Source: Candidatus Omnitrophota bacterium
GTDB taxonomy: Bacteria; Omnitrophota; Omnitrophia; Omnitrophales; Aquincolibacteriaceae
Direction of reading: 5' to 3'
NCBI GenBank assembly: GCA_030698625.1
Contig: JAUYMS010000048.1
Coordinates: forward strand, 154,404 to 218,403
Length of the DNA: 64,000 nt
The notes under the pieces were generated by a model that was not told the origin of the DNA, ran no database searches, and saw nothing but the letters and a program-made list of their open reading frames with translations. A program made the translations under genes and the position numbers. Each line of letters opens with the position of its first letter. The stretch's first letter is position 1. Below are positions 9,977 to 12,270 of the stretch, in pieces.

Positions 9977-11062
9977 GTGTCTATGTCTACCGGGAAATAT
10001 GCTGTAAAAAAAATTGGGATCATCGAACGTTATCAGGAATACCTTCCCGTGACGGACGCGACGCCGATTATTTCACTTAACGAGGGAAACACGCCGCTCA
10101 TTTTGGCGGAGGCCCTTCCGCGAGAACTAGGTTTAAAGACTCAGAAAATCTATTACAAGTTTGAAGGCTTAAATCCTACAGGTTCGTTCAAGGATCGCGG
10201 CATGACGATGGCGATGTCGAAAGCCGTAGAAGCCGGATCACAGGCCGTGATCTGCGCTTCAACCGGTAATACGTCAGCCTCCGCGGCGGCTTATGCTTCG
10301 CGCTGCGGTATTCGCTGTTACGTACTTATCCCCGAAGGGAAGATTGCCAAAGGGAAGCTCCTGCAGGCCTATCGGTACGGAGCGAAGGTCATTATGGTTA
10401 AAGGCAATTTTGATCAAGCGCTCGAACTTGTCAAAGAGATAAGCGCTGACGGAAAGATCACGCTTGTTAATTCACTGAACCCCTTTCGCATTGAAGGGCA
10501 GAAATCAGCGGCCTTCGAAATTGTAGATGATCTCGGAGAAGCCCCTAATTATCATGTCATCCCCGTTGGCAACGCAGGGAACATCACCGCCTATTGGAAA
10601 GGATACAACGAGTATAAGCGGGCGGGGCGTTCGGAGATCCTGCCGCAAATGTTGGGATTTCAAGCCGCGGGCTCAGCTCCCCTGGTTAGCGGGAAACCCA
10701 TTGCGAAACCAGAAACCATTGCGACGGCTATCCGTATCGGTAATCCGGCGAGCTGGGAAGGGGCGATTAAGGCCAGGGACGAGTCGAACGGACTCATTGA
10801 AGCGGTAACCGATGAGGAGATTACGCAAGCCTATCGATTTATCGCAGAGCGAGAAGGTGTTTTTGCTGAACCGGCTTCGGCTGCTGCTGTTGCTGGGGTT
10901 ATAAAATTAGCAAAGCGAAATTTCTTCAAGGATAATGCACGTATCGTCATCACACTGACCGGATCTGGTTTGAAGGATCCCGATTTTGCTCTCAGTTTTG
11001 ACGATAAAATCATAAGTGCGGATCCAACCGTGAACGCGATTCGGGAGGTCATCGAGTTATGA
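9977..11062 (+). CDS. thrC: Threonine synthase
   Basis: A PLP-fold protein with the [15 protein letters not shown] lysine motif. It is 361 aa and follows hom directly. Confidence 0.92.
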
Positions 11063-12270
11063 AATACATTATTGTAGTGATGGCGGGGGCGGCGGATCAT
11101 CCCGCTGAAGATTTGATGGGGAAAACGCCGCTTGAAGTGGCCAAGATGCCAAATTTGCATTACTTGACGAAGGTTGGGAGATTGGGCAGCGCGAAGCTTG
11201 TTACCGAGCATCTTCCGCCGGGCGCGGACACCACACTCCTCAACATCCTTGGTTACAATGCAGATGCTGTGTATACGGGGCTGGGACCGATTGAGGCGGC
11301 CAATCTCGAGCTGCGTCTCGAGGATAATGAGATTCCGTTTAGAATGAATTTTATTACAGAGGCCCAGGGGGTTCTTGCGGATCCGACCGCCGGGAAATTG
11401 GGGACAAAGGAAGCGCGGGCGCTAATCAATTTCCTCAATAAAAAAGTTGCGAATGATTTTATCCGTTTTTTCCCGGGATCTGAATATCGTCACATCGCGG
11501 TGCTGAAGGACGCCCATGGTTTTGAGGCGCTTTCTGCGAAGACTGTGGATCCCGATCTTGCGATGAATCAGAGTATCGAGTCCAACCTTCCCAAGGGCCC
11601 CGGAGAAGAATTGCTCAAGAAAATGATGTACGATGCCAAGTTGCTTTTGCAGGATCATGAAATAAATGAAGTTCGTGTCGATCTCGGCGAAAACCCCGCG
11701 AATATGGTTTGGCTATGGGGGCAAGGGCAACGACCCGTGTTGGAGAAGTTCAAAACGATGAGCGGGCTTTCCGGTGCTTTGATTTCGGGCATCGAATATG
11801 CCAAGGGTATCGCAAGATTAGCCGGTTTGACGGTTGTCGAAGTTCCGGGCGGTACGGGAGATTTGGAAACGAATTACGAGAAAAAGGGTAAAGCTATAAG
11901 CGATGCGCTGGCCGAAAAGGATTTCGTTTGCGTGCATGTACGCGCTTGCGATGAGGCGTCCCGGCAGGGCGATCTCAAAGCCAAGATTGCGGCTATCGAA
12001 GCGATTGATTTTCATATCATCTCGGTGGTGCGCGCTTATCTGGAACGCAATAACGATGCGAAAGTTCTCATAACGCCGGGATATGCGCATCCCTGGAAAA
12101 TGCATCGCCTGGTCCGTGATAGCGTACCGTTCGTTGTTGCGGGAAAGAACGTCAGGGCTGATGAAGTCGAAAAATTTTCCGAATTGGCGGCAAAGTCCTC
12201 AGAGCTGAAGGCCATCAAAAGCCACGAGCTCCTCGCGTCGTTTCTTGCCAAGGAATTTGTGAAGGCCTGA
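11059..12270 (+). CDS. Cofactor-independent phosphoglycerate mutase (archaeal-type, alkaline-phosphatase superfamily) homologue; in this thr-operon context, the predicted non-orthologous homoserine kinase
   Basis: 403 aa. [15 protein letters not shown]...MPNLHYL is typical of the iPGM/PhosphMutase family. An ATGA overlap gives translational coupling to thrC. The gene lies between thrC and lysC, and no thrB is present in the window. Confidence 0.7.

Follow-up and report, generated by a model that had tools for sequence, protein, structure and literature searches.

Use of an iPGM-like protein, i.e., a relative of cofactor-independent phosphoglycerate mutases, as a homoserine kinase is already known at the family level. 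Members of the family described by model TIGR02535, or ThrB2, have been named HomK, and both BT2402 of Bacteroides thetaiotaomicron and the diverged DET_RS08350 of Dehalococcoides mccartyi rescue an E. coli thrB mutant (GapMind 2026 preprint, 10.1101/2024.10.14.618325). An earlier note on the DNA described here had cited the prediction that this family substitutes for homoserine kinase in several lineages lacking thrB, and for the family this is correct. In BT2402, S56 is catalytic, D9, D346, H347 and other residues are metal ligands, and the specificity Glu is E299, which is Lys in true mutases (10.1101/2024.10.14.618325). An earlier preprint has equated D9 of BT2402 with D12 of P. horikoshii apgM (2zkt), which is a zinc ligand. 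Phosphoserine as the donor of HomK has only been speculated on by the GapMind authors (10.1101/2024.10.14.618325). A second enzyme, ThrH, has been described to move phosphate from phosphoserine to homoserine (Singh et al. 2004). ThrH of P. aeruginosa replaces ThrB only if it is over-expressed (PMC1079889).

The locus described here carries a relative of HomK in the place of such a kinase. From comparisons of sequences across the phylum, we consider it probable that this protein is a conserved pseudoenzyme with a non-catalytic role, and that homoserine is most likely phosphorylated by a ThrH encoded elsewhere in the genome. We call the protein pseudo-HomK. Neither a pseudo-HomK nor any other pseudoenzyme of the iPGM family was found in the searchable literature, nor was a repeatedly arisen pseudoenzyme within an amino-acid biosynthesis operon found in the literature searched. 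The gene is in a stretch of 64,000 nucleotides (the window) on contig C13 of an Omnitrophota assembly of 3.52 Mb, which is 95% complete. The features of the operon are as follows.

8679..9974, + strand: hom, homoserine dehydrogenase with a C-terminal ACT domain (PF00742, PF03447, PF01842; NF004976, 531.5 bits)
9977..11062, + strand: thrC, threonine synthase, the consumer of O-phosphohomoserine (TIGR00260, 324.5 bits, cut-off 167.1)
11043..11048, + strand: Shine-Dalgarno sequence GGGAGG within the 3' end of thrC, 10 nt 5' of the ATG of pseudo-HomK (read from the sequence)
11059..12270, + strand: pseudo-HomK, apgM/HomK-fold protein of 403 aa, ATG start
11314..11733, + strand: cap (PhosphMutase) domain of pseudo-HomK, residues ~86-225, including the motif ENPANMxWLWGQG
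12294..13532, + strand: lysC, monofunctional aspartate kinase with ACT domains, GTG start (NF005155, 576.4 bits)
13474..15108, + strand: cimA, citramalate synthase (TIGR00977, 751.3 bits), the start of which is uncertain because the HMM match begins only at residue 28

The order hom-thrC-X-lysC-cimA, where X is the pseudo-HomK position, is kept across the phylum Omnitrophota, and valS is a further neighbour in the window. The presence of cimA after lysC in the same operon is itself phylum-wide. The ATG of pseudo-HomK at 11059 overlaps the thrC stop codon TGA (11060-11062) as ATGA, and a spacer of 23 nt separates the gene from the GTG of lysC at 12294. The gene had been described in the earlier note as translationally coupled between thrC and lysC; this holds on the thrC side, but on the lysC side the spacer precedes the next start, so that pseudo-HomK is coupled at the thrC junction only. 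The 4-nt overlap with thrC was found in 44 of 65 degenerate copies vs. 14 of 60 canonical copies, counts that are approximate since starts were taken from the longest ORF.

The reading of the ORF as a 403-aa homologue of archaeal-type iPGM was confirmed: it consists of PF10143 (PhosphMutase) and PF01676 (Metalloenzyme) domains, and it passes the cut-off of the NCBIfam model TIGR00306 for apgM (372.7 bits, cut-off 320). The models specific for the kinase gave another result. Against TIGR02535, named "proposed homoserine kinase," pseudo-HomK scores 366.8 bits and does not reach the cut-off of 446.3, and the cut-off of PRK04200 is not reached either (383.3 bits vs. 426). Canonical operon copies of other Omnitrophota score 505-546 bits with TIGR02535, and the second, non-operon copies discussed below score 498-515 bits.

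The active site was compared with 2zkt, representatives of 50%-identity clusters and 87 canonical HomKs of Omnitrophota. Validated HomKs entered this comparison through the TIGR02535 model, the residues numbered in the preprint and the alignment to 2zkt. The second metal site was defined by the DxxxH and His positions of 2zkt and the canonical copies, and not by D274/H278/H325 as given in the preprint, which could not be matched to the alignment. The canonical key sites are D9, D13, S56, D57, H293, E295, D298, H302, D341, H342, and H351, and the window protein has A9, D13, A56, D57, H293, R295, D298, R302, G341, Y342, and L351 there. Thus, the serine nucleophile is replaced by Ala56, and five of the six metal ligands are replaced (A9, R302, G341, Y342, and L351), with D298 alone kept. 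The HomK-specific Glu, which is Glu in all canonical copies, is R295 in pseudo-HomK, and H, D, R, E or Q occur at this position across its clade. The same loosening is seen in the 120 closest homologues (58-70% identity): position 9 is A, S or P and Asp in none, position 56 is S, A or P, position 302 is Arg in 93, and position 341 is C, G or A. At the same time, conservation reaches at least 95% at 112 other positions of these 120 proteins.

The fold is intact, because the confident AlphaFold2 model (pLDDT 96.1) superposes on 2zkt (TM 0.80/0.85 against 2zkt_B by Foldseek). Pseudo-HomK therefore has in common with archaeal-type apgM (PDB 2zkt, 3kd8) the two-domain alkaline-phosphatase-superfamily fold (TM 0.80-0.85), but not the two-metal site, the Ser nucleophile or the conserved Lys at the substrate position. 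With BT2402 and DET_RS08350, it shares the fold and the slot beside hom and thrC. Unlike them, it has no equivalents of BT2402 S56, D9, E299, D346/H347, the His of DxxxH and the last His, it is below the family cut-off, and its genome encodes a substitute enzyme; its identity to canonical members, from which it directly descends within the phylum, is ~35-40%. Since almost all catalytic and binding sites are replaced, the window protein is very probably unable to transfer phosphate, and its assignment as a homoserine kinase in the earlier note is not supported. Among its relatives, some residual one-metal chemistry may persist, because D13, D57, and D298 are retained, as they are in the window protein, S56 is kept in half of the degenerate clade, and H342 is kept in most of it.

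The history of the gene was followed in 151 Omnitrophota genomes, 148 of which have a homologue. An operon copy with the full canonical pattern is found in most families of this sample. In a maximum-likelihood tree, operon copies in the order of the window are monophyletic (support 0.997), and pseudo-HomK is nested among the canonical ones. The degenerate clade to which it belongs, (f3,(f2,(f8,f1))), has support of 1.0, and its sister is a canonical copy. The window gene is orthologous to the HomK encoded in the operon of Omnitrophota and was inherited vertically. The contextual argument of the earlier note is well founded in this respect: by operon and tree, the gene takes the position of the iPGM-like alternative homoserine kinase and falls within the lineage of that enzyme. 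Degeneration also took place independently in at least three other lineages, i.e., G150 (f10), f23, which belongs to another class, and G109 (f24), and partially in G064 (f6; T9 and T56). In total, the degenerate state arose only ~4-5 times, and each of these events is accompanied by a catalytic substitute. In f24, one genome (G099, L119) combines ThrH with an operon HomK that is still canonical, and its relative G109 (L105) has ThrH together with a degenerate copy; the two may represent a before-and-after pair for the decay.

Degenerate copies are present outside the phylum as well, in Planctomycetota (P0124), Capsulimonas (P0137), and Brocadiia. Two Brocadiia genomes examined (L170 and L171, both Candidatus Brocadiia MAGs) have a canonical ThrB at 250-251 bits. 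Their degenerate copies show the pattern SDEEHAALTHRR and do not adjoin hom, thrC or lysC. A scan outside the phylum with one Brocadiia protein as the query returned mostly canonical HomKs. Several proteins of ~1000-1100 aa (P0133, P0143, P0159, P0160, P0165, P0199, P0246, and P0265) have a HomK-like domain at the N-terminus; their C-terminal 600-700 aa, in which a Rosetta-stone partner was sought, gave no Pfam match. Within the phylum, one genome (G034, f1) has an extra apgM/HomK-like paralogue (L113:3944-5152:-). It keeps all metal ligands and the Ser, carries Asn where the specificity residue is Glu or Lys, has Met as residue 57, and scores 346 bits with TIGR02535 and 362 bits with TIGR00306.

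Loss of the active site was not followed by loss of constraint on the gene. For the degenerate gene, 12 pairs of closely related genomes gave dN/dS of 0.006-0.10; thrC and lysC give 0.005-0.10 in the same pairs, and pairs of canonical HomKs are in the same range. By this measure, purifying selection acts on pseudo-HomK as strongly as it does on thrC and lysC. What changed is the part of the protein on which selection acts. Within the degenerate clade, the mean identity between pairs of copies is 0.71 for the cap (86-225) and 0.50 for the core, and the ratio of cap to core identity in canonical clades is 0.85-1.09. In 11 genomes that have both copies, for which divergence times are identical, the degenerate copy shows 0.70 for the cap and 0.51 for the core, and the canonical second copy shows 0.61 and 0.71, respectively. 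These values show a shift of constraint away from the catalytic core and towards the cap domain, including its ENPANMxWLWGQG motif. Conserved positions were assigned to domains via the sequence. Twenty-seven positions that are invariant in canonical copies lose constraint, including D9, S56, E295, D341, and H351. The whole V..G.TGY.DT....K loop (262-276) is among the positions losing constraint; conservation of residues 261-280 drops from 0.80 to 0.40 in the degenerate clade, and in f23, an independent clade, the loop is missing altogether. Conversely, 27 positions become invariant, mostly in the cap at 101-160 and 181-204. Under an operational definition of a pseudoenzyme, i.e., an enzyme homologue that lost its catalytic residues and is under purifying selection, pseudo-HomK is one.

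The newly conserved cap positions, a cap that evolves more slowly than in the active paralogues, and the intact fold also speak for a neofunctionalised enzyme, which would carry out a different activity in the aspartate family via cap residues and would need neither the metals nor the nucleophile. We regard this as unlikely, since the protein shows no conspicuous new set of catalytic-type residues, the gained residues are not common to the independently degenerate clade f23, and no missing pathway step is known for pseudo-HomK to fill.

If the operon copy does not phosphorylate homoserine, another enzyme should supply ThrC. The earlier note had found no GHMP-type ThrB in the window, which is correct, and had proposed a search of the whole genome for a canonical thrB or a ThrH. 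With TIGR00191, no GHMP ThrB was detected in the 3.52-Mb, 95%-complete genome, and a type-II ThrB was not found in it either. The best matches to TIGR00191 were rejected as ThrB, being IspE and two HddA-like sugar kinases. Two giant ORFs, of 11,644 aa (G000:C43:128289-163223, - strand) and 14,250 aa (G000:C48:4890-47642, + strand), surfaced as weak matches to kinase families that are probably spurious. The search for ThrH was positive:

G000:C21:56699-57292 (L010:1501-2094), + strand: ThrH, phosphoserine:homoserine phosphotransferase, 197 aa, intact (NCBIfam and 1RKU matches)

This gene, located directly 3' of sdhA/sdhB-like genes, exceeds the cut-offs of both NF010109 (289.7 bits, cut-off 133) and TIGR02137 (271.7 bits, cut-off 223.4). 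It matches P. aeruginosa ThrH (1RKU) at full length (234 bits, residues 1-197), with the HAD motifs DLEGV, SDT, and GDSYND aligned. The folds of ThrH and of the window protein are unrelated. Pseudomonas ThrH is an accessory isozyme beside ThrB, whereas the ThrH of contig C21 would be the sole source of O-phosphohomoserine. The C21 protein may also act as a phosphoserine phosphatase, and could even serve mainly as one, since it is also the best SerB-like match of the genome. SerB above the TIGR00338 cut-off was found in none of the 151 Omnitrophota genomes, and weaker SerB-like matches (80-107 bits) were found in only 18 of them. Because SerB is absent from genomes with and without ThrH, its absence neither explains nor contradicts the ThrH pattern, and it fits consumption of phosphoserine by HomK or ThrH.

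The distribution of substitutes across the phylum differs sharply between the two kinds of operon copy. Among 66 genomes with a canonical operon copy, ThrH was found in one and a second HomK in none. Among 67 genomes with a degenerate copy, 49 have ThrH, 11 have a second canonical HomK, two have both, and one has ThrB, so that ThrH and/or a second canonical HomK is present in 62 of the 67; these counts overstate the number of independent events, since the genomes are related and there are only ~4-5 origins. The one ThrB, in G064, is the only true ThrB in the 151-genome sample, and the second canonical HomKs are encoded outside the operon. No substitute was found in four of the 67 genomes (G114, G060, G107, and G052, the last with a ThrH fragment only), which are 82-95% complete. 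In the clade of the window itself, 44 genomes have ThrH, 11 have a second HomK, and none has both. The second HomK copies form a clade of their own that tracks taxonomy. This suggests that catalysis first passed to a duplicated or acquired HomK when the clade arose, that the operon copy then became inactive, and that the duplicate was afterwards replaced by ThrH in many lines.

This distribution also bears on whether the window protein is a working homoserine kinase or phosphotransferase despite its substitutions, either with other residues or by direct transfer from ATP. Such an activity would agree with its place in the thr operon and the ATGA coupling, with a genome that lacks ThrB, with descent from HomK and with strong purifying selection. 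However, the protein has lost the nucleophile, the specificity Glu and five of its six metal ligands, at sites that vary freely in the clade, the score is under the TIGR02535 cut-off, and ThrH, a second canonical HomK or ThrB occurs in nearly all genomes with a degenerate copy but not in those with a canonical one. An active kinase in the operon is accordingly rated quite improbable. The decayed active site could be taken as the mark of a remnant, i.e., a pseudogene in the making after takeover by ThrH; this is contradicted by the selection data (dN/dS 0.006-0.10), the reading frame has stayed open in 67 genomes from several families, and the 112 positions conserved at 95% or more among 120 homologues and the model pLDDT of 96 also stand against it, which leaves it very little credence. 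That the protein is a genuine cofactor-independent phosphoglycerate mutase is scarcely conceivable, although it passes the TIGR00306 cut-off with 372.7 bits, has the apgM fold and has homologues named iPGM in public annotations, since the metal ligands and Ser are absent, the position of the mutase-type Lys is not conserved in the clade, true apgM paralogues of small Omnitrophota genomes look different (K295; PRK04135, 605 bits), and, with no iPGM gpmI found in the genome, a GpmA (407.9 bits) is present, so that pseudo-HomK is not needed for glycolysis.

Returning to the conserved pseudoenzyme, the following explanation is proposed. HomK forms O-phosphohomoserine at a site with two metals, its serine being phosphorylated as an intermediate. 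Within the clade of the window, constraint on the two-metal site, the Ser nucleophile, the homoserine-binding Glu and the conserved GATG..DT..K loop has been lifted. Pseudo-HomK keeps the two-domain fold of the apgM type and would act as a pseudoenzyme with a non-catalytic job, and O-phosphohomoserine for ThrC would be supplied by ThrH of contig C21. That ThrH makes this compound is most likely, judging from its family membership and the co-occurrence across the phylum.

Pseudoenzymes retained as partners or regulators of active paralogues form a general class. Like its members, pseudo-HomK is homologous to an enzyme but has lost catalytic residues, it is under strong purifying selection, and its genome also encodes an active paralogue or analogue; members of the class act as partners or regulators, and for pseudo-HomK the partner or ligand is a candidate only. 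Its job would most likely be the binding of a pathway ligand or a partner protein, and ThrC may be considered as the first candidate because the ATGA coupling is conserved. From the shift of constraint and the translational coupling, we infer a possible role in ligand sensing via the cap domain or in binding of a partner. Going one step further, it is possible, though we would not put it at even chances, that the ancestral HomK already had a second, indispensable and non-catalytic role, for instance as an obligate partner of ThrC or aspartokinase or as a ligand sensor through its cap domain, and that the operon copy was repeatedly kept for this role once ThrH, a duplicate HomK or ThrB catalysed the reaction.

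For annotation, these results mean that the names phosphoglycerate mutase and HomK are both probably wrong for this gene in a large part of the Omnitrophota. Public records name genes of the pseudo-HomK type phosphoglycerate mutase, and pathway tools could now call them HomK; the homoserine-kinase step in these organisms is probably filled by ThrH or a second HomK. A pseudoenzyme kept in a core amino-acid operon, with several origins and a substitute each time, points to a further, hidden function of HomK. Since ThrH and the second HomK exclude each other, there is independent comparative support for phosphoserine as the donor of HomK, as in ThrH. The strict either/or of the two enzymes would also argue that HomK and ThrH carry out the same phosphoserine-dependent reaction.
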